Assembly: GCA_965200265.1 (NCBI GenBank)
Contig: OZ241357.1
Location: forward strand, 1,731,003 to 1,795,002
DNA length: 64,000 nt
Direction: 5' to 3'
From: Alphaproteobacteria bacterium
Lineage (GTDB): Bacteria; Pseudomonadota; Alphaproteobacteria; UBA2966
Position numbers and translations under genes: made by a program. The number at the start of each line of letters is the position of its first letter. Within the stretch, counting starts at the first letter, position 1. This document shows, in pieces, positions 1 through 26,393 of this stretch. The notes below the pieces were generated by a model, which worked only from the letters and a program-made list of their open reading frames with translations, was not told the DNA's origin and ran no database searches.

Positions 1-3000
1 ATTTCCGCCTCTTGCGTGGCGACGTCGGCGTTCGGGTCGGTTTCCTTTGCGGTCTGGATGTGGTTTGCGAGGGTGGCGAGGCGCCGTTTCGTCTTTGCCG
101 GCGGCGTCGCGATGGGCGCGCGCTCCATGTCCGCCGAGAAGAACCTCATGTCGCCGCCGTCGAAGGGGTCGTCGAGGCAGGGCATGGAGAGGCGGAACCA
201 GAAATCCATGAGCCTGGAGTTCAGGAGGGCGAGAAGGCAGGCGTCGTCGCCGGGAACGATGTAGCAGGTATTGCCGACCAGACGGCCCTCACGGTCGAGC
301 ACGGCCCGCATTTCTGTTCCGATGTCGGGATAGACGATCTTCGGACGGGCGAATGCTTCGTGATAGGCGATGTTTGTCTGAAGCTCGAACCATTCGTAGC
401 TGCCCGGCGCTCGCCCTCGTCTGTCGTTGCGCTTCACCTTCGGCTCCAGGTCGGCGCGGAAGCGTGACAGATGCCGTTCGATGGCCGGGTAGTCCCCGAT
501 GTTCGTGCCCCGGCGGGTGAAGATGACGTACAGCCCCCGCCAATCCGCGCGCCAGCGGCGGACATCGCGGCCACGCAGCCAGGGCTTGATGAGATCAGCG
601 CCGTTCGGGTCCTCGTCGAGCAGCGCCGCGCGGGTATCAGCGTCGATGACGAAGGCGGCGTTCAGACCCGTCTTGATGCCGTAATAAATCTTCTCCGTCA
701 GATACTCCCGCAGCGGCGTTCCGGCGGCCTCGATCCTGGCCCGCAACTTCAGCAATTCCGGGGCCGCCAGGGTCCAGCCCGAATCCGGCAAGTCGGCAAC
801 CTTCATCGGAAACCCGTTCTCGTCCATGAACGCGCCAAGACCAGCCGCGCCGTCCACGCCGCGCACGGTGGCGGCGCGGAACTCGCCGTGGCCACCGCCC
901 TTGCGCGCCAGCAGCACCAGAGGCCGGACCGTCGCGTCGAACGCGCCCGTGCGCCCGAAATCGAGGATGGCGAGCGGCGGCGCCTCCCGCTTCAGGAACT
1001 CGCGCAACGGCCTGCCGTAATCGGCGCGCATGAACTTGTTGGAAGCGATGAAGCAGAGGGTTCCGCCGTCGGCCAGGAGGTCCGCGCCCTTGCGGAAGAA
1101 GTAGGTGTAGACGTCCGCCGCTCCCCGGTGGAACGCCCCGAACGCCGCCGCGAGCCGCGCCTTGCCGGCGATCTTCTCACCCCGGATGTAGGGCGGGTTG
1201 CCGATGACGACGTCGAATCCGCCCGGCGCGCCGAACATGTATTCCGGGTCGAACCATTCGGCGCGGGCGTTCTGGTCGTAAGGGTCCCAGCGGGCGACGG
1301 CCTCAGCGGCGTCGTGACCAAAGCCCAGGTTCTCCAATTCGCGGGCGAGCTCGGCCCGGAGCCTTTCGTCTTCCTCGCGCAGCCGGCGCTTGGTTTCCCG
1401 CGCGCCGGCGTTGAAGTAACGCTCGCGCACGTCCCGCAGGCGGTCTTCGATGGCCTTCACGGCGTCGTTGCCGAGCGTCCCTTGCGCCTCCTCGACGCCC
1501 AGCCCGATCAGCGCGTCGGCGGCGACGAAGCGGGTCTCCAGGTTGGGCAGCGGCTTGATGCCGAGGTTGGGCGCCTCCCGGTCCGGCTCCTGCTCGATGG
1601 CGAGCGAGACGAAGAAGCGCAGCTTGGCGATCTGGCAGGCGATGGGCTGGACGTCGACGCCGTAGATGCCGTTCTGGATCAGGTACAGCTTGCGCCCGAA
1701 ATCCGATTGCCGATACCTCTCGAACGTGTCGTTGATCTCCCGGAGCTCGTCCTCGCGCGCGTCCCGGTCGCCGCCGTCGAAGGCGGCGCCCGCCCGCGCC
1801 TTCGCCCGCTCCTTCTGAAACGCCTCCCACAGCGCGTTGTCCGGGTCCAGCCGCCGCAGCGCCAGCGTGAGCGTCTGCAGGACGCCCATCGGGAAGGCCC
1901 CGGACCCCGCCGCCGGGTCGAGCACCCGCAGGCCGGCGATGGCGCGCACCAGCGACGCCGCCTCCTCCGGCTCGAAGAAGTCGCCGGCGTCGGCCCTGGC
2001 GCTCTCCCAATCCAGCAGGTAAAGCAGCCGGGCGCGCCAGAAGTCGCCGCCGGCGACGGTCGGGCTGGCGCACTCCGCCAGGGCTTCCGCCAGCGCCTCG
2101 CGGACCATGTAGTCGACGACCGCCCGCGGCGTGTAGTAGGAGCCGGTGGCCTTGCGCGCCGTCTCCCGCGTCTCCGGGTTGTAGGCCGCCAGCAGGTTCT
2201 CGAACGCCCGGCCCAGCAGCTCCGGGTCGAGCGCCACCTCCCGGTCGAGCGGCGTGTTCTCCTCGACCGTGAACTTGTAGCGCCGGAACAGCGGGAACAG
2301 GCCGCGTTCCGGGTCGAGGAACAGCCGCGCCGGGACCTCCAGGCCCTTGCCCTGGGCCGGATTGTCGGTGAAGGCGTCGATGCGCCGCCCGCCCTCCTGC
2401 TTGCCGGCGAAGTCGTCCAGGCAGTCGAACAGCCCGCCGTTGACGAAGGGAACGGCCTTCAGCGTCTCGACGAAGCCGTCCGGGTCGGACAGCAGATCGC
2501 GGTAGCGGTATCTGGCGAAGTCGCGGTGGCCGCCCGGGTTCCGCCCGCTGAAGGCGCGCCTGTCGACCTCGGTGTTGAGGGTGGCGAAGAACAGGTTCTG
2601 GAGCACGGCGCGGTAGTAGTCCGTGCCATCCAGCGCGTAGCCCTTGAGCGCCGCGCGGGCGAAGCCGTCCTCGAACAACGCCTCCGGGATCAATCCCTTC
2701 TCCTTCATGAACCAGACGAAGAGAAGGCGCGTGATCAGGCGGATGACGTGGCGTTCGGTCGAACCCTCCCCGGCGCCGTCGTCGGGAAAGCGGCACGCCT
2801 TCGCCGCCCGCTCGAACCACGCGAACAACTCGCGATAGAAGCGCCGGTTGAGTTCCTCGATGTCGAGCGTCCGCTCCCACGCCGCGTGCAAATCGTCGAA
2901 GTCGCGGACGCCGTGGGCCTCGATCAGGCGCGGCAGCGCGAGGTTGGCGAGGACGTCGACGTGCGCCCGGTGCGGGTCGGCGGCGCGCACGTCCTTGATC

Positions 3001-3491
3001 AGGGTCACGCGCTCCAGCACGTCGCGGTCCGGCTCGCGCCTGTGGGCGCGGCGGTGGACGACGGCCAGCGTCACGGCCGCGCCGTGACGGAACAGGACGA
3101 TGACCGGCATGGCGAAGCCGAGATTGGCGGCGCGCGCCATCTCCGCCAGTTCGGTCCGGCTCCAGGGGCGGTCCTCGAGGTCGGCGGCCACGAACAGGAA
3201 CGACCTGGCGCGCCCGCGGTCGAAGTCCTGGAACAGGCCCGGACGGTCGCCGATCTCCTCGCCGGTGACCTGGAAGACGATGTCGGCCGAGCGCCAGGCG
3301 CCGAGCAGCTTGCGCCGCCGCGCCGTCAGGGGCCTCCTCTCCTCCAGCAGGGCCACGAACGCATCGACGCCGCCCACGTCCTCCGTCCGCTCACTGCTAT
3401 AGCCGAGCGCGCCCAGCAGCGCCGCGGCGCCTTCGCGCGGCGGGCGTCCCGGCGCCAGGCCGGCCAGGGCTTGCTTCACGGAATCGCGCAT
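1..3491 (-). CDS. Eco57I/PglX-family N6-adenine DNA methyltransferase with TaqI_C-like target-recognition domain (type IIG RM-like). 3' end truncated at window start.
   Basis: Reverse-strand ORF from ATG at 3491 (MRDSVKQALAGLAPGRPPREG...). SAM-binding motif I DPAAGSGAF around 1900 and catalytic NPPY around 1190 (motif I before IV). C-terminal region TaqI_C-like (YYGIKTGLNAAFVID...WFEL). No stop codon before position 1, so it is absent from the ORF track. The antisense +ORF 471..4874 is an artefact over this region. Confidence 0.8.
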   Translation of the reverse strand, partial: MRDSVKQALAGLAPGRPPREGAAALLGALGYSSERTEDVGGVDAFVALLEERRPLTARRRKLLGAWRSADIVFQVTGEEIGDRPGLFQDFDRGRARSFLFVAADLEDRPWSRTELAEMARAANLGFAMPVIVLFRHGAAVTLAVVHRRAHRREPDRDVLERVTLIKDVRAADPHRAHVDVLANLALPRLIEAHGVRDFDDLHAAWERTLDIEELNRRFYRELFAWFERAAKACRFPDDGAGEGSTERHVIRLITRLLFVWFMKEKGLIPEALFEDGFARAALKGYALDGTDYYRAVLQNLFFATLNTEVDRRAFSGRNPGGHRDFARYRYRDLLSDPDGFVETLKAVPFVNGGLFDCLDDFAGKQEGGRRIDAFTDNPAQGKGLEVPARLFLDPERGLFPLFRRYKFTVEENTPLDREVALDPELLGRAFENLLAAYNPETRETARKATGSYYTPRAVVDYMVREALAEALAECASPTVAGGDFWRARLLYLLDWESARADAGDFFEPEEAASLVRAIAGLRVLDPAAGSGAFPMGVLQTLTLALRRLDPDNALWEAFQKERAKARAGAAFDGGDRDAREDELREINDTFERYRQSDFGRKLYLIQNGIYGVDVQPIACQIAKLRFFVSLAIEQEPDREAPNLGIKPLPNLETRFVAADALIGLGVEEAQGTLGNDAVKAIEDRLRDVRERYFNAGARETKRRLREEDERLRAELARELENLGFGHDAAEAVARWDPYDQNARAEWFDPEYMFGAPGGFDVVIGNPPYIRGEKIAGKARLAAAFGAFHRGAADVYTYFFRKGADLLADGGTLCFIASNKFMRADYGRPLREFLKREAPPLAILDFGRTGAFDATVRPLVLLARKGGGHGEFRAATVRGVDGAAGLGAFMDENGFPMKVADLPDSGWTLAAPELLKLRARIEAAGTPLREYLTEKIYYGIKTGLNAAFVIDADTRAALLDEDPNGADLIKPWLRGRDVRRWRADWRGLYVIFTRRGTNIGDYPAIERHLSRFRADLEPKVKRNDRRGRAPGSYEWFELQTNIAYHEAFARPKIVYPDIGTEMRAVLDREGRLVGNTCYIVPGDDACLLALLNSRLMDFWFRLSMPCLDDPFDGGDMRFFSADMERAPIATPPAKTKRRLATLANHIQTAKETDPNADVATQEAE

Positions 3492-3537
3492 CGGATCGGG
3501 GGCGGAGTGTACCGACCGGCGGCGGCCGCGGTCCATC

Positions 3538-3618
3538 CTGGCCGGTGGCCGGTGGCCAGTGGCCAGTTGCCGGCACCTGCCGGCACCGATCACCGGCAAC
3601 CGGCAACCGTCCACGGCG
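3538..3618. repeat. REP-like hairpin element made of 7-bp repeats (CCGGTGG/CCAGTGG ... CCACCGG/CCACTGG) around a CCGGCACCGATCACCGG centre
   Basis: Read directly in the sequence. Same family as the copies at 8664, 26314 and 19589. It lies in the divergent intergenic region between the MTase and rnd. Confidence 0.7.
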
Positions 3619-3695
3619 GGCGCGGGCGGGGGAATCCCTCTATGCTGCCGCGGCGCCGCGAGGCGTCGACCCGCAACAGGAACGGCGATCCGGTC

Positions 3696-4874
3696 ATGGC
3701 CGCGAACCTGGTGAGCAACACCCCGGAACTGATCTCCGCCTGCCGGCGGCTCCGCGCCGCCGACTATGTCGCGGTCGATACCGAATTCATCCGCGACAAC
3801 ACCTACTGGCCCCGGCTCTGCCTCGTGCAGGTCGCCGGCGAGGCCGGGGCGCTCGCGATCGACCCGCTCGGCGCCGACCTCGACCTGAAGCCCTTTCTCG
3901 AGCTGCTGACGGACGAGAGCGTGCTCAAGGTGTTCCACGCCGCGCGCCAGGACGTCGAGATCTTCCACTTGCTGGGGGCCATGCCGGCGCCGCTCTTCGA
4001 TACGCAACTCGCCGCGATGGTCTGCGGTTTCGGCGACGCCGCGGGATACGAGACCCTCGTCAAGCGCCTGCTCGGCCATGCCGTCGACAAGTCGTCCCGG
4101 CTTTCCGACTGGTCCCGCCGCCCCCTGAGCGAACGGCAGATCCGATACGCCCTCGACGACGTGGTCCATCTTCGCGGCGTCTACGCCGAGCTCGCCCGGC
4201 GGCTGCGGGACTCGGGACGCGAACGATGGCTCGCCGAGGAACTCGCCCTCCTCACCGACCCGGAGACCTACGCCAACCCGCCGGAAGAGGCCTGGCGGCG
4301 GATCAGGAGCCGGAGCGCCAAGCCGCGCCACATGGCCGTCCTGCGGGAGCTCGCGGCCTGGCGCGAGCGCGCGGCGCAAGCGCGGGACCGCCCGCGAAAC
4401 CGCGTGCTCCGCGACGAGGCCCTGGCGGAAATCGCGGCGCATCCGCCGAGGAGCGCGGCCGACCTGAAGCGGATGCGCGGCCTCCCGAAGGGCCTGCCGA
4501 CCCGGGCCGACGGCGAAACGATCGCGCGCATCGTGGCGGACGTCATGGCGCTGCCGGAAGGAGACCTTCCCCGGCCGGAGGCCCGGTCGCGCCCGAACAA
4601 GGGCAAGGCGCCGCTCGTCGAACTGCTCAAGGTGCTCCTCAAGGCGAAATGCGAGGAACACGGCGTGGCCCCGAAGCTGGTGGCGACGGGCGACGACCTC
4701 GAACGCATCGCGGCCGGCGACAAGCACGGGATCCCGTCGCTGACGGGATGGCGCCGCGGGCTTTTCGGCGAGGACGCGCTGCGGCTGACGCGGGGCGAGG
4801 TCGCGCTGACGGCCGATTCGCGCGGCATCCGGCTGATCGGCGCGGCCCCGCCGGACGGCGGCGGCCCGGCATGA
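3696..4874 (+). CDS. rnd: Ribonuclease D (3'-5' exonuclease plus HRDC domain)
   Basis: MAANLVSNTPELISACRRLRAADYVAVDTEFIRDNTYWPRLCLVQVA... is a DEDDy exonuclease motif region, with an HRDC-like C-terminus. The ATG at 3696 is the C-terminal third of track ORF 471..4874. Confidence 0.9.
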   Translation: MAANLVSNTPELISACRRLRAADYVAVDTEFIRDNTYWPRLCLVQVAGEAGALAIDPLGADLDLKPFLELLTDESVLKVFHAARQDVEIFHLLGAMPAPLFDTQLAAMVCGFGDAAGYETLVKRLLGHAVDKSSRLSDWSRRPLSERQIRYALDDVVHLRGVYAELARRLRDSGRERWLAEELALLTDPETYANPPEEAWRRIRSRSAKPRHMAVLRELAAWRERAAQARDRPRNRVLRDEALAEIAAHPPRSAADLKRMRGLPKGLPTRADGETIARIVADVMALPEGDLPRPEARSRPNKGKAPLVELLKVLLKAKCEEHGVAPKLVATGDDLERIAAGDKHGIPSLTGWRRGLFGEDALRLTRGEVALTADSRGIRLIGAAPPDGGGPA

Positions 4875-6434: not shown

Positions 6435-8601
6435 GGTGCGGGTCGGGGGCGGACGTCTCCAGCGCCTTGCCGCGCCCGGAAAGACTGGGATTGGTCATGA
6501 AGTAGGTATGCGCCGAAAACGCCTCGTCGTCCAGTTCCGATCTCGCATAGGTCCCGTCGGGCTGGAGCGTCCAGCTCTGGGCCTTGTCCTTGAAGTTGGC
6601 GACCATGATCTGATCGAGGACCTGCTCGTGAACCGTCGGGTTCTCCAGCGGGGTCAGCAGCTCGACCCGCCAGTCGAAGTTTCTCGGCATCCAGTCGGCG
6701 GACGAGATGAAGACCCGGGCGCCGGGCGACGGCAGGCCGCGGCCGGCGCCGAAGCAGACGATGCGGGAGTGCTCCAGAAAGCGGCCGATCACGCTCTTCA
6801 CGCGGATGTTGTCCGAAAGGCCGGGCACGCCGGGGCGCAGGCAGCAGATGCCGCGCACGACGAGGTCGATCTGCACGCCGGCCCGGCTCGCCCGGTAGAG
6901 GGCGTCGATGATCTTCCCGTCCACCAGGGAGTTCATCTTCGCCCAGATCTCGGCCGGACGGCCCGCCTTGGCGTGGGCTATTTCCCGGTCCACCATGTCG
7001 ATCAGCGTGCCGCGCAGGTTCTGGGGCGAGTTCACGAGCCGCTCCAGATGGCGGGGCGGGGCGGTTCCCGTCATGTAGTTGAAGATGTCGGCGGCATCGC
7101 GGCCGATGGCCGGGTCGGAGGTGAAGAACGAGAGGTCCGTGTACACCCTGGCGGTGACCGGGTGGTAGTTCCCGGTGCCCAGATGCACGTAGGTCTCGAG
7201 GCCGTCCTTCTCGCGCCGGACGACGAGCGAGACCTTGGCGTGCGTCTTCAGCGAGACGAAGCCGTACACGACCTGCACGCCGGCGCGCTCGAGGTTCCGC
7301 GCCCAGCGCAGGTTGGCCTCCTCGTCGAACCGCGCCTTGAGCTCGACCAGGGCGGTCACGGACTTGCCGGATTCGGCCGCGTCGATCAGCGCCGCGACGA
7401 TCGGCGAATCATCGCTGGTGCGATAGAGGGTCTGCTTGACGGCGATCACGTCGGGGTCCGCCGCCGCCTGTTCGACGAACTGCACGACGACGTCGAAGCT
7501 CTCGTAGGGATGATGGACCACGAAGTCCTTCTCCCGGATCGCGGCGAACAGGTTCCCCCCGGCTTCCCTGACGCGCTCCGGGTAGCGCGGACTGTAGGGC
7601 GTGAACAGCAGTTCGGCGCGCTGGCCGAGGATGAGCTCGCTGGTGTCTCCGAGGCCGAGAATCCCGTCGACCACCGTCACCGCGTCATCCGGCGCCCCGA
7701 TCTCCGCGGCGACGAACCGGCGCAGGTCCTCGGGCATTCCCGAATCGACGAACAGCAGCGTCACGCTGCCCCGGCGGCGGCGCTTGATCGCCGATTCGTA
7801 GAACCGGATCAGATCCTCCGATTCGTCCTCGATCTGTATGTCCGAATCGCGCAGGACCCGCACCAGCCCTTCGCCCGCGACGTCGTAGCCGGGGAGGAGC
7901 TGGTCGACGAACATCCGCACGATGTTCTCGAGCGAGAGGAAGCGGGCGGCGTCGCCGGGCAGCCGGAAGAACCGATCGACCTGATGCGACAGCGGGATCA
8001 GGGCCTGCAGCACGTGGCCGTCGCTCCGGCGGGACAGCTGAAGCACCATCGCGAAGCCGCGGTTCGGAAGGAACGGAAAGGGATGGGCCGGGTCGACCGC
8101 GATCGGCGTGAGCACGGGAAACACGCGCTCGAGAAAGAGGCGGCCGATGAACTCCCTGTCCGCGTCCGTCAGATCGGCGGTATCGAGCACGACGATGCCG
8201 GTCTCGCGGAGCCGCTGCCGGAGCGCCGACCAGACGCGCGCCTGGTCGGCCATCAGCCTGTTGGCGCGGGTGTTGATCTCGGTCAGCTGCTCTTCCGGAG
8301 ACAGCCCGTCCTGGCTGAGCTCGTGGACGCCGGCCGCGATCTGGCCGCGGATGCCGGCCACGCGAACGGTGTAGAACTCGTCCAGGTTGACCGCCGAGAT
8401 CGACAGGAACCGGAGCCGCTCCAGCAGCGGGTGGGACGGGTTCTCGGCCTCCTCGAGGACCCGTTCGTTGAACGACAGCCACGACAGCTCGCGGTTGATG
8501 TAGCGCTCGCTCGACCGGAGCGGCGCCTCGTCGCGGCCGTCCCCGCCGGCCGCCGCGTCCCGGTCCGTCGTCTCGCGAGGTCGCGTCTCGGCGATCGTCA
8601 C
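6415..8601 (-). CDS. ppk: Polyphosphate kinase 1
   Basis: [22 protein letters not shown]... and the PPK1 domain series. The likely start is GTG at 8601, preceded by GGAGGAGG. The first ~47 residues of the track ORF (8742..8602) lie over the REP element and are not coding. Confidence 0.9.
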
Positions 8602-8663
8602 GTGGCCTCCTCCGATTTCCCCGCACCGCGCCGGCGGGCGGATGCCCGGCATGGTAGCAGATG

Positions 8664-8763
8664 CGCCGGTGGCCGGTTGCCGGTGGCCGGTGGCCGGTTG
8701 CCAGTGGCCGGTGGCCAGTTGCCAGTGGCCGGCACCGATCACCGGTCACCGGCCACCGGCCAC
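8664..8763. repeat. REP-like 7-mer-array hairpin element
   Basis: ...gccggtggccggttgccggtggccggtggccggttgccagtggccggtggccagttgccagtggccggcaccgatcaccggtcaccggccaccggccactg. Divergent intergenic region between ppk and the FAD monooxygenase. Confidence 0.7.
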
Positions 8764-8887
8764 TGATAACAAGGCCGCGATGCCGGCGGGACGGAGTTTG
8801 ACCCCGAACGGCCGGCCGCATATTACGGCGGGCACGCCGGGCGCGCGCCGCGTCCGGCCGCCGCCGAAACCGATCCGGACGAGGGCG

Positions 8888-9982
8888 ATGCCCCTTTCCC
8901 GTCACGCCGAAATCGCCGGCGCCGGATTCGCCGGCCTGACCGCGGCCGCGGCGCTGGCCCGGCGCGGGTGGTCGGTGCGCGTGCACGAGAAAGGCCCCGA
9001 GGTTCGCGCGTTCGGCGCCGGGATCTGGATCTGGACGAACGGCTGGCGCGTCCTCAAGGCGGTAGGCGCCTACGCGCGGGCGCGCGAGGACGGCTACGAA
9101 AGCCCCTCGATCGAGAGATACGACCACAACGGCAGGCTACTCATGCCGCCGGTCCGGTTCGCCGACCACGGCGCCCGGATGATCGCCGTCGTCCGGCAGA
9201 AGCTGATCGAGGCCCTGCTCGAGACGTGCCTCGAGGCGGGCGTCGACGTCGTCACGGATTCGGAGGTGTCGGGCGCCTCCGAGGACGGCGAACTGAAAAC
9301 CGCCGCCGGCGGGACGTTTCCCGCGGACCTCGTGATCGGCGCCGACGGCGTCAACTCCGCCGTCCGCGATTCGCTGAAGCTGACCCGGCGCCGCAACCGC
9401 CTCGCCTACGGCGGCTCCCGGCTGCTCATCCCGCGCACCGGGGAAGAGATGGCGGACGCGACGGACCGGGTCCTGACCTACGTCAACGGGGAAAGAAGGC
9501 TGCTGTACACGCCCTGCGGGCGGACGCTGACCTATCTCTGCTTCACCGTCCGCCCCGACGACGCGGAGGGCCGCGCCGTTCCGGTCAGAAAGAAGGCGTG
9601 GATCGAGTCGTTCCCGATGCTGGAACACGTCCTGGAGCGCGTGGGGACCGACGGCCGCTGGGACCGCTACGAGGTGATACGGCTCAAGCGCTGGACGCGC
9701 GGGCGGGTCGCCATCGTCGGCGACGCGGCTCACGCCATGGCGCCCTCGCTCGGGCAGGGCGGCGGGTGCGCGATGATGAACGCCCTGTCCCTGGCCGCCG
9801 CCGCCGGAGACGCGGCCGACGTTCCCGGCGCCCTCGCGGCGTGGGAGGAGCGGGAGCGGCCGCTGACCGAACGGGCGCAGCACGTCTCCTCGATGTTTTC
9901 GGGCCAGCGGACGGACTGGCGGCGGCGCGGCATATTCGAAACGGCCCGTCACCGGCCGACGGGCGCCGAGGGCATCGACTGA
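8888..9982 (+). CDS. FAD-dependent aromatic-ring monooxygenase (class A flavoprotein hydroxylase, salicylate/3-hydroxybenzoate hydroxylase-like)
   Basis: HAEIAGAGFAGLTAAAALARRGWSVRVHE (dinucleotide-binding GxGxxG), DLVIGADGVNSAVR, and the GDAAHAMAPSLGQGGGCAMMNA motif. Paralogue of 16442..17644. Confidence 0.85.
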   Translation: MPLSRHAEIAGAGFAGLTAAAALARRGWSVRVHEKGPEVRAFGAGIWIWTNGWRVLKAVGAYARAREDGYESPSIERYDHNGRLLMPPVRFADHGARMIAVVRQKLIEALLETCLEAGVDVVTDSEVSGASEDGELKTAAGGTFPADLVIGADGVNSAVRDSLKLTRRRNRLAYGGSRLLIPRTGEEMADATDRVLTYVNGERRLLYTPCGRTLTYLCFTVRPDDAEGRAVPVRKKAWIESFPMLEHVLERVGTDGRWDRYEVIRLKRWTRGRVAIVGDAAHAMAPSLGQGGGCAMMNALSLAAAAGDAADVPGALAAWEERERPLTERAQHVSSMFSGQRTDWRRRGIFETARHRPTGAEGID

Positions 9983-10022
9983 GCGCCCGTCCCGGAATAC
10001 GCCGTCCCGGCGGGGAACGCGC

Positions 10023-13405: not shown

Positions 13406-14379
13406 ACGACCCTTCCGATCTCTTCCTGCTGCCGCTGGAGGACTGGATACAGACGGCCGTGGAATGGGTGGTCGCCAACTGGCGCCCGGTCTTCCAGGCA
13501 ATCCGCTGGCCCATCTCCTACACGCTCGACGGGCTGGAGGCGGCGCTCCAGGGAATCCCCTACCTCGTGGTCGTGGCCGCGATGTTCGCCGTCGCGTGGC
13601 GCGCCGCCGGCTGGCGCACCGGCGCCTTCAGCCTCGCCGCCATGCTGTTCATCGGGTTCCTGGGCCTGTGGGACAAGGCGATGACGACGCTCGCCATCGT
13701 CTTCACGGCGGTCGTGTTCTGCGTGATCGTCGGCCTGCCGCTCGGAATCCTGGCGGGCAGAAGCGACCGGTTCTGGTCGTGGCTGAGGCCGGTCCTGGAC
13801 GTGATGCAGACCACGCCGTCCTTCGTCTACCTCGTTCCCGTGGTGATGCTGTTCGGCATCGGCACCGTTCCGGGCGTCATCGCCACGATCATATTCTCCC
13901 TGCCGCCGCTCATCCGCCTGACCAACCTGGGGCTCCGGCAGGTGCGGACCGAGGTGGTGGAGGCCGGCCTGGCGTTCGGGTCGACCCGCTGGCAGCTGCT
14001 GAAGGAGGTGCAGTTCCCCCTGGCCCTCCCCACCATCATGGCGGGGCTCAACCAGACGCTTCTGCTGGCGATGGTCATGAGCGTCATCGCCGCCATGATC
14101 GGCGCCGAAGGTCTGGGACTCACCGTGTTGCGGGGGATCGGCAGGCTCGACGTCGGCCTGGCGGCGATCGGCGGCATCAGCATCGCGCTGCTGGCCATCA
14201 TCCTCGACCGGGTGACCCAGGCGCTGGGCCAGGCGCGGCGGGACGGCCCGCCGATCGAGCGCCGGAGCTGGCTGGCGATGGTGTTCGGCTCGCGTCCGCG
14301 GCCCGGCGAAAGCCCGGCGGCGGGCGGGAGCGACTCCTTCCGGGAGCCCTCCGGGCGGTTCTCCAGGGGCGGGGGGTGA
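13402..14379 (+). CDS. proW: Glycine betaine/proline-type ABC transporter permease (ProW/OpuAB family)
   Basis: Multi-TM protein with the EAA-loop region ([39 protein letters not shown]). ATGA start/stop overlap with proV. Confidence 0.85.
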
Positions 14380-14474
14380 GCGGCTTGACTCGCGAAAGGC
14401 GACTCGCGGACAATCCCCTTTCACGATCACGCACCACGCACACACGATCGCACGTGCGAAACGGGGAGGCGGGA

Positions 14475-15503
14475 ATGAACATCAGCCTGCGCAACGTCGG
14501 CATCGTCGCCGGACTCGCATTGTTCGCCCTGGCGGCGCCGGCGGCGGAATCCGCCGCCGCCGAGAAGTCGGCCAAGCCGGCCCGGGCCACCTGGGACACG
14601 TTCTGGTTCGGCGAACGGATTCTGAAGATCGGCCTGGAGCGCCTCGGCTATACCGTCGCGGAGCCGAAGACGCTCAACAACCCGGCGCGCTATCCCGCCG
14701 TCGCGCAAGGCGACGTCGATTACGAGACGGACGCCGTGATCCCGAACGCCAGCGCCTTCATCGAGAAGGTCAAGGCCGACGTCGAACTGGTCGGGCCGCT
14801 CATGAATCCGGGCTCCATCCAGGGTTATCTGATCGACAGGAAGACGGCGGAGGCCCACGGCATAACGAGCCTCGAGGACCTCAAGAAAGACGACGTCCGG
14901 AAGCTCTTCGACGGCGACGGCGACGGCAAGGCGGACCTGATCGGCTGCAATCCCGGCTGGAACTGCGAGAAGTTCATCAACCACCACATCGGCGCCTACG
15001 GGCTGGCCGACCACGTGAAGCACGTGCAGGGCGAGTACAACGTGCTGGTCGGAGATACGGTCGGCCGGTTGAAGCGCGGGGACTCCGTGCTCCTCTACGC
15101 CTGGTATCCGAACACCGCCACCATCCAGATGACGCCGGGCGAGGACCTGGTCTGGATCACGGTGCCCTACACCGACCTTCCGGACGGCGGCAAGGCCGAC
15201 ACGACGCAGGAGGGGCTGAAGTCCTGCGCCGCCGGCGCCGGGGCGTCGTGCAACCTCGGCTGGGCCGCGACCCAGTACTACGTCGCCGCGAACAGGAAGT
15301 GGCTGGCCGCGAACCCCCAGGCCCGGAAGCTGTTCGAGCTGGTCAAGGTCGGCCTCGAGGACCGGGTGACCCAGAACCTGGCCATGAAGAACGGCGAGGA
15401 CTCCGAAGCGGACCTGACGCGCCACGCGGAGCAGTGGATCGCCAACAACAAGGCCGCGTTCGACGGCTGGGTGGAAGAGGCCCGCAAGGCCGGCAGCTAC
15501 TAG
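14475..15503 (+). CDS. proX: Quaternary-amine (betaine-type) ABC transporter substrate-binding protein (ProX/OpuAC family)
   Basis: Signal peptide MNISLRNVGIVAGLALFALAAPAAESA, then an OpuAC-like fold (GCNPGWNCEKFINHHI, YAWYPNTA). Confidence 0.8.
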   Translation: MNISLRNVGIVAGLALFALAAPAAESAAAEKSAKPARATWDTFWFGERILKIGLERLGYTVAEPKTLNNPARYPAVAQGDVDYETDAVIPNASAFIEKVKADVELVGPLMNPGSIQGYLIDRKTAEAHGITSLEDLKKDDVRKLFDGDGDGKADLIGCNPGWNCEKFINHHIGAYGLADHVKHVQGEYNVLVGDTVGRLKRGDSVLLYAWYPNTATIQMTPGEDLVWITVPYTDLPDGGKADTTQEGLKSCAAGAGASCNLGWAATQYYVAANRKWLAANPQARKLFELVKVGLEDRVTQNLAMKNGEDSEADLTRHAEQWIANNKAAFDGWVEEARKAGSY

Positions 15504-15506
15504 CGG

Positions 15507-15540
15507 GCAGCGGGTAGCGGGCCGTTTCGCGCCCGCAACC
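15507..15540 (+). terminator. GC-rich hairpin downstream of proX (GCGGGCcgtttcGCGCCCGC)
   Basis: Inverted repeat immediately after the proX stop codon. There is no T-tract, as is common in high-GC genomes. Confidence 0.35.
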
Positions 15541-15598
15541 CCGTCCGTGGCGGCCGCCTCCCGCGCCGGGACGCCGCAGGCCGAAGGACGTTCGCTTC

Positions 15599-16411
15599 AT
15601 GCCGCTCGAGGAACGGGACATCGAATTCGAGGGGACGACCGTTCACGTCTGGGAGGGCGGAAGCGGCTTCCCGGTCCTGATGCTGCACGGATCGGGGGCC
15701 GGCGCCTCGATCTTCTCCAACTTCGAGCGTGTTCTCGAGCCTCTCGGCGAACGCTACCGGATACTGGCCGCGGACCTCGTCGGCTTCGGCCAATCGGGGC
15801 TGAAGCCGGAGATGCCGTACTTCGACGTCGAGATGTGGCTGCGTCAGGGGCTGCGCCTGGCGGAACTGCTTCCCGACGGGCCGATCGGCGTCATCGGGCA
15901 CTCGCTCTCCGGGGCGTTCGCGCTCAAGCTCGCCGCCCGAACCGGCCGGATCGCCAAGGTCATGGCCACCGGCACCATGGGGGCCAGCTTCGAGGTCCCC
16001 GAGGCGCGCAACCGCGCGTGGACCTACCCGGAAACGGACGAGGCCATCCGCGGCGTCGCCGAGCACATGGTCGTCGACAAGTCGATCGTCACCGACCGTC
16101 ACGTCGCCCACCGCAAGGCGATCCTGACCCGGCCCGGCTATCGCGAGTACTTCAGGGCGATGTTCGAGAAGGACCGGCAGCATTTCGTCGACGCCTCGGC
16201 CGTGACCCCGGACGAACTCTCCCGGATCGGCTGCGACGTCCTGTTCGTGCACGGCCGGCAGGACGCGTCGTTCCCGCCGGACAAGACGACGCTGGTCCTC
16301 GCCCGGGCGATCCCGACTTCCGACGTCGTCCTGCTGTCCCGGTGCGGGCACAACGTCGCCTACGAACAGCCCGCGAAATTCCTGCGCGCCTGCGAGATGC
16401 TCTTTGGATAG
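15599..16411 (+). CDS. Alpha/beta-fold hydrolase (meta-cleavage-product hydrolase / MhpC-BphD-like)
   Basis: Nucleophile elbow GHSLSG, LMLHGSGAGAS oxyanion region, C-terminal catalytic His (CGHNVAYEQP). Confidence 0.8.
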   Translation: MPLEERDIEFEGTTVHVWEGGSGFPVLMLHGSGAGASIFSNFERVLEPLGERYRILAADLVGFGQSGLKPEMPYFDVEMWLRQGLRLAELLPDGPIGVIGHSLSGAFALKLAARTGRIAKVMATGTMGASFEVPEARNRAWTYPETDEAIRGVAEHMVVDKSIVTDRHVAHRKAILTRPGYREYFRAMFEKDRQHFVDASAVTPDELSRIGCDVLFVHGRQDASFPPDKTTLVLARAIPTSDVVLLSRCGHNVAYEQPAKFLRACEMLFG

Positions 16412-16441
16412 GCCGTTTCCCGAGGCGCCGGGCGCCGGCGC

Positions 16442-17644
16442 ATGACCCGGCACGCGGAGATCGCCGGCGCCGGCTTCTCCGGCCTCGCGATGGCCGCCGC
16501 GCTGGCCCGGCGCGGGTGGTCGGTGCGCGTCCACGAGCGGTCTGCCGAGGTGCGGGCGTTCGGCGCCGGGATCTGGACGTGGGAGAACGGCGTCCGCGCG
16601 CTCGCCAGCATCGAGGCCGCCGACGACGCCTTCGCCGACTGCATCCCGCCGCCCCGATACCTCGAACGGGACGCCGGGCAGCGCATCATCCGGTCGCTGC
16701 CCTTCCCGCCGCCACGCAGCGCCAGCGGCGTCCGCATGTTCTGCATCACGCGGCAGCAGCTCCTCATGGCCATTCACGGCGCGGCGATGCGGGCGGGGGT
16801 GGAGGTCGCCGTCAATTCCGAGGTCGTTTCCGCGCGGCCCGAAGGCGCACTCGAAACCGCCGACGGAAGGACCTTGCGGGCGGACCTCGTCGTCGGCGCG
16901 GACGGGGTCAATTCCCGGGTCCGCGATTCCCTCGGCCTGCTGCGAAGCCGCCGCCGGCACGCGGACGGGGGGATCCGGGTGCTGGTGGCGCACGAGGGAG
17001 GCTACGGCGACACCGAGGAAGGGAGCCTGCTGCGCTCGTGGTGGAGCGGCCGGCGGCGGTTGCTGTACACGCCGTGCACGAGCGACGTCTTCTACATGTG
17101 CTTCACGGGACGGGCGCGGGACGGCCAAGCGTCGCGGGTTCCCCTGCACAAGGAGTCGTGGATCCGCCATTTCCCGTTCATGGAATCGATGATCGACCGC
17201 GTGGGCGAGGAGCAGCGCTACGACGTCTTCGAAACGGTGAAGTCCAAGCGCTGGCGCGCCGGCCGGGCGGCGATCATCGGCGACGCCGGCCACGCCATGG
17301 TTCCGGGGCTCGGCCAGGGGTGCGGCATGGCCATCTGCAACGCCCTGTCGCTGGCCGGCCATCTGGCCGATCACCGGGACGTCGAGCGCGCGCTCGACGA
17401 ATGGGAAACGCGCTGGCGCCCGATCACGGAGCACGCCCAGCTCTGGTCCCGGATCAGCTGGCCGCTGACGCAGATCCCGGTCGGCGTCGCCCGCTGGGCC
17501 TTCCGGACTCCGGCGGTTCACGACTGGGTGGCGGCCCAGCGCAGCAAGCCTTCCCGCGTCATGCCCCACGGCAGCGAGAACGACCCGCGCTGGCTCCCGC
17601 GGGACGCGGCCGCGCCGATCGCAACGCCGGGCGGGAAGCCATGA
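16442..17644 (+). CDS. FAD-dependent aromatic-ring monooxygenase, paralogue of 8888..9982
   Basis: MTRHAEIAGAGFSGLAMAAALARRGWSVRVHE..., DLVVGADGVNSRVR, GDAGHAMVPGLGQGCGMAICNA. The N-terminal 30 aa are nearly identical to the paralogue. Confidence 0.85.
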   Translation: MTRHAEIAGAGFSGLAMAAALARRGWSVRVHERSAEVRAFGAGIWTWENGVRALASIEAADDAFADCIPPPRYLERDAGQRIIRSLPFPPPRSASGVRMFCITRQQLLMAIHGAAMRAGVEVAVNSEVVSARPEGALETADGRTLRADLVVGADGVNSRVRDSLGLLRSRRRHADGGIRVLVAHEGGYGDTEEGSLLRSWWSGRRRLLYTPCTSDVFYMCFTGRARDGQASRVPLHKESWIRHFPFMESMIDRVGEEQRYDVFETVKSKRWRAGRAAIIGDAGHAMVPGLGQGCGMAICNALSLAGHLADHRDVERALDEWETRWRPITEHAQLWSRISWPLTQIPVGVARWAFRTPAVHDWVAAQRSKPSRVMPHGSENDPRWLPRDAAAPIATPGGKP

Positions 17645-19191
17645 AGAAAACGCCGCTGTTCGACATCCATGTGGCGTCGGCGAGACGCATGGTCAACCTC
17701 AAGGGCTTCGCCCGCCCCGTCGAGTACGCGGGCCACGCCGAGGAGCACCGGGCCATCCGGGAACGGGTCAGCCTGTGCGACGTGTCCCACATGGGCGAGA
17801 TCGAAATCAGCGGTCCGGACGCGCCGGCGCTGGTGGACAGGCTGATCACGAACGACGCCGCCCGCCTCGACGCGGGCCAGGCCCTCTACACCGTCATGTG
17901 CGATGAACGCGGCCACGTCATCGACGATCTGGTCTGCCTCCGCCTGGCGGAAGACCGGTTCCTCTGGGTCGTCAACGTCACCAGGACCGACGAGGACCAT
18001 CGCTGGGTCCTGAAGCACGCCCAGGGCCTCGATACGCACGTCCGCGACCGGTCGGCGGAACTCGCCCTCCTCGCCCTCCAGGGGCCGTATTCGAGCGAGG
18101 TCCTGCAAAAGGTCGTCGCGGCCGACCTTTCGGGAATGGCCTACTACCGGCTGGCGGAAACCACCGTCACGACCGACGAGACGGAGGCCCCCTGCATCGT
18201 CAGCCGCACCGGATACACCGGCGAACGGGGATACGAGATCTGCGTTTCCCGGGACTTCGCCCCGTCCGTGTGGCGGGCGCTGATGCGCGCCGGGCGTCCC
18301 CTGGGCATCGCGCCGCACGGGGTCGCCGCCCGCGAGAGCGCGCGCACCGAAGCCGGCTACCTGCTCAACGGCAACGACATCGACGACCGGACCTACCCCC
18401 ACGAGGTCGGTCTCGGCTGGGTGGTGAAGCCGCACAAGGACTTCATCGGGCGCGACGCGCTGGCCGCCGTCGCCGAAGGGGGAGCGCCGCGGAAGCTGGT
18501 GGGGCTGGAGATGGCGGGACGGGTCACGATCCGCCACGGATACCCCGTCTTCAGGGACGGCGAGCGGATCGGGCGGGTCACGAGCGGCCCGCTGTCTCCC
18601 GACCTGGTGGGCGGCGCCGCGAGCCTGGGGCTGGGATTGGTCGCCAGCGCCCACGCCGGGGACGGCGGCGTCCTCCAGATCGGCGTGCGCGGCGCGCGCC
18701 ACGATGCGCGAATCGTCCCCTACCCCTTCCGGGAACGGCGGGTGCGCGACGACGCCAGGGTGGACACCCTGTCTCCCTGCGGGCTGCGCTACGGCGAGGA
18801 TCATTTGTGGGTCGGGGCGGAGTCCGACGGCCGGGCCACGATCGGGCTCACCGACTTCGGACAGCGGTATCTGGGGGAAGCGCTGTCGGCGGTGCTGCCG
18901 GTGCCGGGCGACCGCATCGTGCGGGGATCGCCGTTCGGCTGGCTCGACGCCTACCGCAGGCCCTTCGACCTGATCGCGCCGGTGTCGGGGACGGTCGTGG
19001 CGGTGAACGCGGCCGCGGTCGAACGACCGGGCGACGTCAACCGCTATCCCTACGCGCGCGACGGCCTGATCCGGATCGAACCCGACGATGCCGGGGAGAT
19101 CCCGGCGCTCGCCGGGTTCGCCGCCTACACCGAGACCACGCGCCGGCTCGAGCGCTACGACTCCTGGTCCCGGGACCTCAGGCTGACCTGA
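17641..19191 (+). CDS. gcvT: Aminomethyltransferase (GcvT-type, folate-dependent) fused to a C-terminal GcvH-like domain that lacks the lipoyl-lysine
   Basis: The N-terminal ~360 aa align closely with GcvT (TPLFDIHVASARRMVNLKGF...CDVSHMGEIEISG..., GYTGERGYEI). The C-terminal ~150 aa align with the genome's own GcvH (LRYGEDHLWV..GLTDFGQRYLGE..), but ESVKAAS is replaced by LDAYRRP, so there is no lipoylatable Lys. Start overlaps the preceding stop (ATGA). Confidence 0.8.
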   Translation: MKKTPLFDIHVASARRMVNLKGFARPVEYAGHAEEHRAIRERVSLCDVSHMGEIEISGPDAPALVDRLITNDAARLDAGQALYTVMCDERGHVIDDLVCLRLAEDRFLWVVNVTRTDEDHRWVLKHAQGLDTHVRDRSAELALLALQGPYSSEVLQKVVAADLSGMAYYRLAETTVTTDETEAPCIVSRTGYTGERGYEICVSRDFAPSVWRALMRAGRPLGIAPHGVAARESARTEAGYLLNGNDIDDRTYPHEVGLGWVVKPHKDFIGRDALAAVAEGGAPRKLVGLEMAGRVTIRHGYPVFRDGERIGRVTSGPLSPDLVGGAASLGLGLVASAHAGDGGVLQIGVRGARHDARIVPYPFRERRVRDDARVDTLSPCGLRYGEDHLWVGAESDGRATIGLTDFGQRYLGEALSAVLPVPGDRIVRGSPFGWLDAYRRPFDLIAPVSGTVVAVNAAAVERPGDVNRYPYARDGLIRIEPDDAGEIPALAGFAAYTETTRRLERYDSWSRDLRLT

Positions 19192-19248
19192 ACGTCCATC
19201 TGTTCTCCCCTCGGGGCGCCACTCGGACCTTCGCGAGACACGGCCGAG

Positions 19249-19760
19249 GGTGTGCAAGGTGTGCAATTCGACGCACCGGGTCCGCCCTCCATACGGTGTG
19301 CAAGGTGTGCCATTCCGGGCGCGATCCGGACCTCCGCGGAATGCGCCCGACGGTGTGCAAGCTGTGCAATTCGACGCGCCGGGTCCGCCCTCCATACGGT
19401 GTGCAAGCTGTGCCATTCCGGGTACGGCCCGGACCTCCGCAGGATGCGCCCCACGGTGTGCAAGGTGTGCAAGTCGGCGCGCCGGGCACACCCCCCATAC
19501 GGTGTGCAATGTGTGCCATTCCGGGCGCGGCCCGGACTTCCGCGAGATGCGCCCGACGGTGTGCAAGGTGTGCAAGTCGGCGCACCGTGCCGCGACTGGC
19601 GACTGGCGACTGGCGACTGGCCACCGGCGACCGACCTTAGTGTGCAACGTGTGCCATTCCGGGCGCGGCCCAGACTTCCGCGGAATGCGCCCCCACGGTG
19701 TGCAAGGTGTGCAAGTCGGCGCGCCGCGTCCCGCTCGCCGTTCCCGGCGCCGGGCGGGTT
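19249..19760. repeat. Composite tandem repeat array (about 104-bp dimer unit, roughly 4.5 copies). Each half-unit begins GGTGTGCAAGGTGTGC(A/C)A. Unit B carries the hairpin CATTCCG...CGGAATG.
   Basis: Read directly. Half-units start near 19249, 19295, 19352, 19399, 19455, 19501, 19558, 19639 and 19698. It sits in the convergent intergenic region between the gcvT fusion (+) and the SDR gene (-). Confidence 0.8.
19589..19636. repeat. GCGACTG heptamer microsatellite / REP-like insertion inside the tandem-repeat array
   Basis: gccgcgactggcgactggcgactggcgactggccaccggcgaccgacc shows the same 7-mer logic as the other REP-like elements. Confidence 0.6.
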
Positions 19761-19781
19761 TCACGGACGCCGGGGCCGCCG

Positions 19782-20561
19782 TCAGAACAGCGCCGGATTC
19801 AGCCCGCCGTCCAGCAGAATGCTCTGGGCCGTGATGTAGCCCGCCCTGTCGCCGCACAGGAACGCGCAGGCTTCGCCGAATTCCTCCGGCGCGCCGAACC
19901 GGCCGACCGGGATGCGCGCGATCCGGCGCTCCGCGGCCGCTTCCGGACTCACCCCCTCGCGCCTGGCGACGGCCTCGGTCGTGGCGCGAAGGCGATCGGT
20001 AAGGATCTCTCCGGGAAGCAGGTTGTTGATCGTCACGTTGTGCCGGGCGACTTCACGGGCGATGGTGCCGACCGCGCCCGTGAGGCCCGCCCTCGCGCCG
20101 TTCGACAGCACCAGGATGTCGACGGGCGCCTTCACGGAACCGGACGTGACGTTGACGATGCGGCCCCATCGGCGCGCGATCATGCCGTCGACCGTCGCCT
20201 GGATCAGGGCGATGGCCGTCAGCATGTTGGCGTCCAGCGCCGCGATCCAGTCCTCGCGCGTGAAATCCCGAAAGTTGCCGGGCGGCGGACCTCCGGCGTT
20301 GTTGATCAGGATGTCCGGCTCGGGACACGCGCCCAGCGCCGCCTCGCGCCCTTCCTCGGTCGTGACGTCGCCGACGACGGCCGTGACCTGCGCCGCCGTC
20401 GCGGCCCGGATCTCCGCGGCGGTCGCCTCGACGGTTTCCGGGGTGCGGCCGGTGACGGTCACGTCGACGCCTTCCCGCGCCAGCGAGAACGCGCAGGCCC
20501 TGCCGAGGCCGCGACTCGAGGCGCACACGAGCGCCTTCCTTCCCGCGATACCGAGATCCAT
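19782..20561 (-). CDS. SDR-family oxidoreductase (3-oxoacyl-ACP reductase-like)
   Basis: N-terminal GRKALVCASSRGLGRA (TGxxxGxG), the NNAG motif, and the classical SDR active-site region. Confidence 0.85.
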   Translation of the reverse strand: MDLGIAGRKALVCASSRGLGRACAFSLAREGVDVTVTGRTPETVEATAAEIRAATAAQVTAVVGDVTTEEGREAALGACPEPDILINNAGGPPPGNFRDFTREDWIAALDANMLTAIALIQATVDGMIARRWGRIVNVTSGSVKAPVDILVLSNGARAGLTGAVGTIAREVARHNVTINNLLPGEILTDRLRATTEAVARREGVSPEAAAERRIARIPVGRFGAPEEFGEACAFLCGDRAGYITAQSILLDGGLNPALF

Positions 20562-26313: not shown

Positions 26314-26393
26314 GCCGGTGGCCGGTGATCAGTGACCGGTGGCCAGTTGCCAGTTGCCAGCACCGATCACCGGCCACTGGCCACTGGCCACTG
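26314..26393. repeat. REP-like 7-mer-array hairpin element
   Basis: gccggtggccggtgatcagtgaccggtggccagttgccagttgccagcaccgatcaccggccactggccactggccactg, located between the gcvP 3' end and the ndk 5' end. Confidence 0.7.

Follow-up and report, generated by a model that had tools for sequence, protein, structure and literature searches.

A partner-less Eco57I-like adenine methyltransferase gene beside rnd in an alphaproteobacterial genome: a probable solo member of a two-gene restriction-modification-like family

The type ISP restriction-modification (RM) enzymes, such as LlaGI and LlaBIII (cited in PMC12707154), combine nuclease, SF2 motor, gamma-class adenine methyltransferase and recognition domain in a single polypeptide, in which these parts act as one unit and the nuclease is of the Mrr type. 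The type IIG and IIL enzymes, represented by BpuSI (3S1S), DrdV (7LO5) and MmeI (5HR4), are also single polypeptides, of ~1000-1200 amino acids (aa), in which a catalytic PD-(D/E)xK N-terminal domain is followed by a helical domain, a gamma-class Eco57I methyltransferase domain and a C-terminal TaqI_C recognition domain. CamA (7LNI) and M.BseCI (7QW5) are solitary methyltransferases of ~580 aa with no adjacent nuclease gene. Here, we analyzed a 64,000-nucleotide (nt) stretch of the genome of an Alphaproteobacteria bacterium (GenBank assembly GCA_965200265.1, contig OZ241357.1, positions 1,731,003 to 1,795,002; hereafter, the window), the left edge of which carries, on the minus strand and next to the RNase D gene rnd, a gene for a large methyltransferase of this kind. 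This gene, which lacks its partner, is an ordinary representative of a two-gene, RM-like family that has been outlined but not characterized.

Methyltransferases resembling the window protein also belong to multi-gene systems. PglX/BrxX of BREX (8C45, 9EWZ) and DrmMI of DISARM class 1 are Eco57I-like adenine methyltransferases with a similar length and architecture, and DISARM includes a SNF2 helicase, DrmD, as do the relatives of the window gene described below; in contrast to the window locus, these systems have the companions pglZ, brxC, drmA and drmB. In MANTIS (Gao_RL, BREX-related type 2), the N6-adenine methyltransferase MtsC provides site recognition and self-marking, and the effector is MtsD, in which a PLD nuclease is joined to an SF2 helicase-like ATPase (bioRxiv 10.64898/2026.09.23.753747; PMC12839542). 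The BREX-related systems (Rakesh & Krishnan 2026) and MANTIS have a similar PLD-helicase effector and are centered on a DUF499 ATPase. In addition, Table 3 of Milman et al. (2023) lists a "Type II RM CDS homologous to Cj0031" that is immediately preceded by a PLD and SNF helicase coding sequence (CDS), and programmed inversions in the recognition domain of such genes were reported in the same study (PMC9881135). This is the gene pair of most relatives of the window gene, whereas the window copy lacks both the helicase and an inverted cassette. The entries in that table are the sole mention of the pair in the literature searched, in which no biochemical characterization of the two-gene family was found, and the pair is not described in a 2025 RM review.

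Related loci were collected by a scan of one genome per species, which yielded 69 loci. All-against-all clustering of the flanking open reading frames (ORFs) revealed a single recurrent neighbor, a gene of ~1100 aa present in 54 loci, and tblastn with two query proteins confirmed the presence of this helicase-nuclease gene close to that for the methyltransferase in 53 of the 69 loci; where tblastn gave no match, the locus was in most cases a short contig-end fragment. In most loci, the partner gene is on the same strand, directly upstream, and abuts or overlaps the start of the methyltransferase gene by a few nt. The partner protein contains PLDc_2, RE_NgoFVII-type PLD (HKD), SNF2-rel_dom, ResIII and Helicase_C domains and matched the PADLOC model "HKD+Snf2" (PDLC01075) at 1e-104 to 1e-124; its score for DrmD was 157 bits against a cut-off of 610, and those for other named helicases were also far under the cut-offs. 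DUF499, DUF1998 and PglZ were not found as recurrent neighbors in the 69 loci, and the extra clusters arose from alternative frames of the helicase gene, an artefact of GC-rich DNA. Because the PLD-SNF2 gene recurs near the methyltransferase gene in most of the loci, the family is normally a two-gene unit, composed of a PLD nuclease fused to a SNF2 motor and of a methyltransferase with its recognition domain.

The closest relatives (loci L001-L021) are mostly from metagenome-assembled genomes (MAGs) of Poribacteria, Entotheonella, Latescibacterota, Binatia and uncultured Alpha- and Gammaproteobacteria, a set of taxa typical of marine sponge symbionts, so that the window may come from a community of that kind; the uncultured lineages that dominate the related loci as a whole are Poribacteria, Entotheonella, Latescibacterota and Cloacimonadota. 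Only distant matches were found in the plasmid collection, where the PGAP/RefSeq names for the pair are "helicase-related protein" and "hypothetical protein". In L014 and L006, genes are located between the helicase and the methyltransferase, where the GC-rich DNA gives many spurious ORFs. In L015 (Latescibacterota), the PLD-SNF2 helicase ORF at 7011-9998 ends in a PemK/MazF toxin domain (Pfam 1.2e-26, aa 883-985) where the usual C-terminal region would be expected; this may reflect either a true fusion or two adjacent genes.

The window copy is solo and has no adjacent partner. No tblastn match to the PLD-SNF2 helicase was detected in the 64-kb window, or at three related sites: L070, the contig that carries P0001, a protein 98% identical to the window methyltransferase; L001, which is 80% identical and also lies beside rnd; and L005. 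In the window, rnd holds the upstream position that the PLD-SNF2 helicase gene takes in most relatives. The linked relatives look like a split version of type ISP, from which they differ in being encoded by two genes and in having a PLD nuclease, and the window contains the methyltransferase and recognition half only.

The assignment of this half was examined by profile and structure comparisons. The initial annotation had described an Eco57I/PglX-family adenine methyltransferase with motif I (DPAAGSGAF), motif IV (NPPY) and a TaqI_C-type target recognition domain, and these elements were all located, motif I preceding motif IV and the recognition domain lying C-terminal to the methyltransferase domain. 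Pfam Eco57I (PF07669) matched aa 607-851 at 3.5e-32 (112.3 bits against a cut-off of 25.3), and TaqI_C (PF12950) matched at 3.2e-13 (50.4 bits against a cut-off of 26.5). A helical insert of ~200 aa separates the two motifs, and the stretch of the recognition domain quoted earlier, KIYYGIKTGLNAAFVID (YYGIKTGLNAAFVID), was found at aa 935-949. The family profile matched the CamA and M.BseCI structures first (E 1.3e-39), followed by PglX/BrxX and TaqI. The AlphaFold2 model of the whole protein (mean predicted local distance difference test score, pLDDT, 69.6) was aligned by Foldseek with CamA at E 7.5e-19 (TM 0.79 on target) and, more loosely over the full length, with BrxX, MmeI, BpuSI and DrdV. 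By these comparisons, the C-terminal two thirds of the protein are a gamma-class N6-adenine DNA methyltransferase of conventional type that carries its own recognition domain. In being solitary, the window copy also resembles CamA and M.BseCI, the best profile and fold matches to this half (TM ~0.8 on target), whereas these two lack the ~420 aa of the N-terminal and helical domains and, as far as the present analysis goes, do not derive from a helicase-linked family.

The N-terminal domain distinguishes the family from other Eco57I-like proteins. In an alignment of 35 members (~32-98% identity), the signature residues Y31, F73, Q74, R112, R120, N123, R147, R148, D157 and H174-R-A-H177, as well as P129, were invariant or nearly so, and the window protein has the complete signature. 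In a search among 1.84 billion cluster representatives, a profile of the domain found 1392 at E <= 0.001, 1082 of them at E <= 1e-10. Among the 150 matches listed, the domain was always N-terminal, and the larger proteins were mostly of ~1160-1380 aa. In comparison with PDB chains, neither the full-length single sequence nor the domain profile gave a meaningful match for this region, the best being an unrelated photosystem subunit at E 0.55. The window protein belongs to a discrete Eco57I-like sub-family, marked by a unique N-terminal alpha/beta domain and comprising ~1400 clusters at 50% identity, which is common in uncultured lineages.

The reading frame was absent from the mechanical ORF list because it runs off the window. 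As the initial annotation had stated, a minus-strand ORF of more than 1,160 aa starts at ATG 3491; 1163 codons are stop-free in the window (3491 to 3). The 1,467-aa plus-strand ORF at 471..4874, which had been regarded as a fake fusion to rnd, indeed consists of RNase D in its ~410 C-terminal aa (ATG 3642) and of the antisense of the methyltransferase in the remainder. P0001 has 1189 aa and its contig has the same neighbors as the window (rnd, ppx, ppk, FAD monooxygenase, amidohydrolase and ABC transporter). Because this 98%-identical, syntenic protein is of that length, the window edge cuts off only ~26 codons and the stop, corresponding to about the last two helices. A premature stop just outside the window had been named as a sign of a pseudogene; however, the final 400 nt of the window are identical to L070 at 398 positions, and the L070 ORF continues for 26 codons to a TGA.

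The frame could be aligned end to end with 38 homologues (52-98% identity), in which motifs I and IV are invariant. The ratio of nonsynonymous to synonymous substitution rates (dN/dS), estimated by the crude Nei-Gojobori method (NG86), was 0.29 against L070 and 0.43 against L001. The gene is, on these estimates, under purifying selection, and nothing in the sequence points to a pseudogene. With respect to the 5' end, a second in-frame ATG is located at 3534-3536, 15 codons upstream of the start at 3491. The additional N-terminal peptide from ATG 3536, MDRGRRRSVHSAPDP, is conserved in L001 as MDRDRRRPIQSAPDP, and a similar one is found in L005, whereas the family alignment begins at the methionine at 3491. 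The true start is uncertain and may be either 3491, the family consensus, or 3536.

Taken together, these observations point, with a probability that we put at about 0.68, to the solo modification and specificity subunit of a biochemically uncharacterized two-gene, ATP-dependent, RM-like family; this subunit would act as an orphan N6-methyladenine methyltransferase or possibly in trans, with a partner encoded elsewhere. The protein would read a short, probably asymmetric DNA site through its recognition domain and methylate an adenine within it. No DNA cleavage would be expected of the solo protein alone: there is no nuclease triad in its N-terminal domain, as described below, and the nuclease of the family resides on the missing partner. 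In the linked relatives, by analogy with type ISP and with MtsC/MtsD, the methyltransferase would direct the ATP-driven PLD nuclease to unmethylated sites. The window copy would then be either an orphan methyltransferase or an extra specificity subunit for a PLD-SNF2 motor-nuclease encoded elsewhere in the genome. For annotation, this means that the gene should not be named BREX PglX, and that "type IIG restriction enzyme" is applicable only with reservation; it is better described as a DNA adenine methyltransferase of a family in which the PLD-SNF2 nuclease is separate. The family itself resembles type ISP in split form, with PLD as its nuclease, and could be seen as a MANTIS relative reduced to a minimum.

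The second of these roles, a subunit acting in trans, was considered in the light of genomes that contain both kinds of copy. The genome OY282368 carries the solo L001 and the helicase-linked L009, and the genome OZ251449 carries the solo L005 and the helicase-linked L004. Between paralogues of the same genome, the helical domain is 96-98% identical at the amino acid level and the recognition domain 18-38%; the latter is the most variable module between paralogues (18-39% identity). In both L001/L009 and L005/L004, a tract of ~900 nt (CDS nt ~450-1350) exhibits 97-99% DNA identity. Because this tract sits between flanks of 55-90% identity, the comparison indicates gene conversion between the solo and linked paralogues, by which the helical domain has been homogenized in these related genomes. 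At CDS nt 1500-1950 (window ~1540-1990), the window gene in turn shows 95-96% identity to the linked L009 and L004, but only 71-87% to its solo orthologues. Since the segment is closer to the linked copies, the window gene is a mosaic, the lineage of which exchanged sequence with a helicase-linked paralogue. Furthermore, L008, L028 and L054 each combine one helicase gene with two complete methyltransferase paralogues, which lie within 5-20 kb of it.

According to the trans-acting reading, the product of the solo gene would be an alternative subunit for specificity and modification, which docks onto a PLD-SNF2 motor-nuclease whose gene lies at another place in the chromosome. A single nuclease would be shared by several dispersed methyltransferase and recognition subunits; gene conversion would preserve the compatibility of their common docking region (CDS nt ~450-1350), and their recognition domains would diverge. 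We regard this specific version as a tentative possibility, at odds of about one to three. If true, it would mean a biochemically uncharacterized two-component type of restriction system that depends on ATP, is distributed and has multiple specificities. The coexistence of solo and linked paralogues with conversion tracts offers a testable case of either the origin of an orphan or the gain of several specificities by one motor-nuclease, and it is the family and these paralogue dynamics that are worth experimental work; the result for the window itself is modest.

The recognition domain is also subject to rearrangement in some relatives. Inverted partial copies of it (query aa ~934-1183) were found just 3' of the methyltransferase gene in L010, L015, L016 and L021, and an ORF resembling tyrosine recombinases lies close to the inverted cassette in L010, L015 and L021. 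These copies fit the programmed recognition-domain inversions reported previously (PMC9881135). No inverted recognition-domain cassette was found in the window or in L070.

An autonomous type IIG (or IIL) enzyme, in which an N-terminal endonuclease allows the same protein to cut and to methylate its own site, is an improbable alternative to the solo subunit. The initial annotation had assigned the domain set to type IIG/IIL enzymes; the Eco57I and TaqI_C family call was right, the window protein shares the single-chain length and domain order of these enzymes, and the best PADLOC models for it carry the label type IIG REase-MTase (9.4e-110), with DrmMI and PglX far behind. The interpretation itself is supported in part. 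The nuclease motif of BpuSI is PD-x15-ExK (PMC3185434), whereas in the 35-member alignment no D...(D/E)xK triad was conserved across the N-terminal domain, so that the PD-(D/E)xK motif that was to be looked for in the first 250 aa was not recovered and no other nuclease motif was conserved: the candidate acidic positions 70 and 104 vary, E79 is replaced by N in five members, and ExK does not occur. With regard to type IIL, MmeI_Mtase scored 17.1 bits against a cut-off of 27, and the Pfam models MmeI_N, MmeI_hel, MmeI_TRD and MmeI_C did not match the window protein. In addition, the family normally lies beside a separate PLD-SNF2 gene, unlike the type IIG/IIL enzymes. The N-terminal domain is at most a diverged restriction-enzyme-like fold without a canonical active site, and the protein is probably not an autonomous type IIG enzyme. 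It may nevertheless have an unconventional nuclease site, because D157, E160 and K166 are well conserved.

A decaying remnant, which has lost its partner and is drifting toward a pseudogene or serves as a silent gene-conversion donor for an active paralogue, is still less likely. The absence of the partner by tblastn and the conversion tracts and mosaicism that tie the window gene to helicase-linked paralogues are consistent with this reading, as is the slightly raised dN/dS of the N-terminal domain in solo pairs (0.58 against 0.36-0.41), although this difference is small and the Nei-Gojobori method is crude at 70% GC. Conversely, the full-length frame keeps every catalytic motif, the 80%-identical orthologue at the same rnd-adjacent site in another genome is also intact, and the overall dN/dS given above is near that of the linked pairs (0.33-0.37).

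A BREX PglX, which the initial annotation had kept as an option, or the methyltransferase of another multi-gene system (DISARM DrmMI, MANTIS/BREX-related MtsC or MADS Mad2), is very improbable. Weak partial matches to the PglX, DrmMI and Mad2 models, a full-length fold alignment to the BrxX/PglX structures (E 1e-13 to 2e-14) and the domain content of the relatives' partner, which is like that of DrmD and MtsD (bioRxiv 10.64898/2026.09.23.753747), favor such an assignment. However, the NCBIfam BREX_1/2/6_MTaseX (PglX) models scored 59.7, 35.3 and 27.4 bits against cut-offs of 400, 900 and 500, MAD2 scored 22.5 bits against 720, and DrmMI matched a partial stretch only, at 1.9e-28. Extension of the locus leftward, which had been proposed as a way to find pglZ or brxL, was possible on L070: pglZ, brxC, brxL, drmA, drmB and DUF499 were absent both from the 10 kb downstream on that contig and from the upstream side in the window (rnd, ppx, ppk), and no DUF1998 gene was found nearby. 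DUF499 had no match among the L070 neighbors, the MtsA and MtsB models having been left unapplied at the other loci. MANTIS requires MtsA (a DUF499 AAA+ ATPase) and MtsB in addition to the pair; its methyltransferase and PLD-SF2 helicase-nuclease follow the same logic as the linked relatives, but neither MtsA nor MtsB recurs beside the window family, in which the PLD-SNF2 gene is the only recurrent neighbor and has a DrmD score far under the cut-off, and the window additionally lacks the helicase. BREX is thus excluded and the multi-gene reading as a whole is largely refuted.

On L070, the next gene downstream encodes a 392-aa MazG/MazG_C protein. A new two-gene unit of this gene with the methyltransferase, suggested by their common strand, the 47-nt gap and the strong MazG_C match (6e-78), can be dismissed with little hesitation, because the MazG_C gene is missing from all of the other 69 related loci, lies in an island of 41-54% GC (L070 13.0-16.0 kb) where the methyltransferase gene and the chromosome have ~70%, and is replaced at the orthologous sites by Cas13a (L001) or an ABC-type ATPase (L005). 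The island spans the last ~570 nt of the methyltransferase gene (stop at 13570), the MazG/MazG_C gene and two small ORFs; the low GC content and the absence of the MazG_C gene from all other loci mark it as a recent foreign insertion and not a partner.

The coordinates of the features are collected in Table 1.

Table 1. Features of the methyltransferase gene, its surroundings and the inverted recognition-domain copies of related loci (window coordinates unless a locus is named)
Feature	Coordinates	Strand	Basis and remarks
Methyltransferase CDS	1..3491 (1163 codons at nt 3-3491)	-	5' end complete, 3' end cut; P0001/L070
N-terminal alpha/beta domain, aa 1-195	2907..3491	-	Family signature
Helical domain, aa 196-420	2232..2906	-	Secondary structure, invariant columns; blocks RLITRLLFVWFMKEKGL, NLFFATLN, VPFVNGGLFD
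Predicted gamma-class N6-adenine methyltransferase catalytic domain, aa 421-870	882..2231	-	Pfam Eco57I, weak N6_Mtase, profile, Foldseek
GSYYTP, aa 450-455	2127-2144	-	Sequence
Motif I DPAAGSGAF (VLDPAAGSGAFPMG), aa 525-533	1893-1919	-	Sequence
Motif IV NPPY (VVIGNPPYIRGE), aa 764-767	1191-1202	-	Sequence
Target recognition domain, aa 871-1110	162..881	-	TaqI_C at aa 970-1102 (nt 186-584); aligns with CamA recognition domain
Start of C-terminal helical tail, aa 1111-1163	3..161	-	P0001 sequence and model; final helices (…EIDLLVYTLYDLDERDVGIIEG…) beyond the window
Divergent intergenic region, methyltransferase/rnd	3492..3641	.	Sequence; heptamer tandem repeats 3539-3609 (TRF, repeat family search)
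rnd (RNase D, 410 aa)	3642..4874	+	ORF translation; DNA_pol_A_exo1 and HRDC Pfam domains on syntenic gene
Inverted recognition-domain copies	L010 13611-14342; L015 13692-14417; L016 13586-14179; L021 13565-14303	-	

The downstream cargo differs among the solo sites, and the site behaves as a variable defence island. In L001, an alphaproteobacterial MAG (OY282368.1), a 4-repeat CRISPR array with 66-nt spacing lies directly 3' of the orthologue (13714-13957, minus strand), followed by the Cas13a gene (13993-17532, minus strand; 1179 aa; NCBIfam cas13A_C2c2, 775 bits against a cut-off of 150). In L070, the MazG_C gene is followed by small ORFs, a papain-like (C1) peptidase, a pair of an M78 peptidase and a helix-turn-helix (HTH) protein that resembles CapP/CapH, a PDC-M50A-like gene and, further on, aspS and a gene for ribonucleotide reductase; the low-GC island and the part at 16150-20432, with the peptidase, the M78 and HTH pair and the PDC-M50A-like gene, form a defence-island-like stretch ahead of aspS.

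Heptamer tandem repeats were observed in the window not only beside the methyltransferase gene but also at 8665-8763, 19603-19624 and 26332-26391, with units such as TGGCCGG, ACCGGCA and GCCGGTG (an example is CCGGCAACTGGCCACTGGCCAC). A search for this repeat family gave 10 matches at <=3 mismatches against 0 expected. The two repeat sites examined are divergent intergenic regions, methyltransferase/rnd and ppk/monooxygenase, and the repeats give rise to odd peptides at the starts of mechanically called ORFs.

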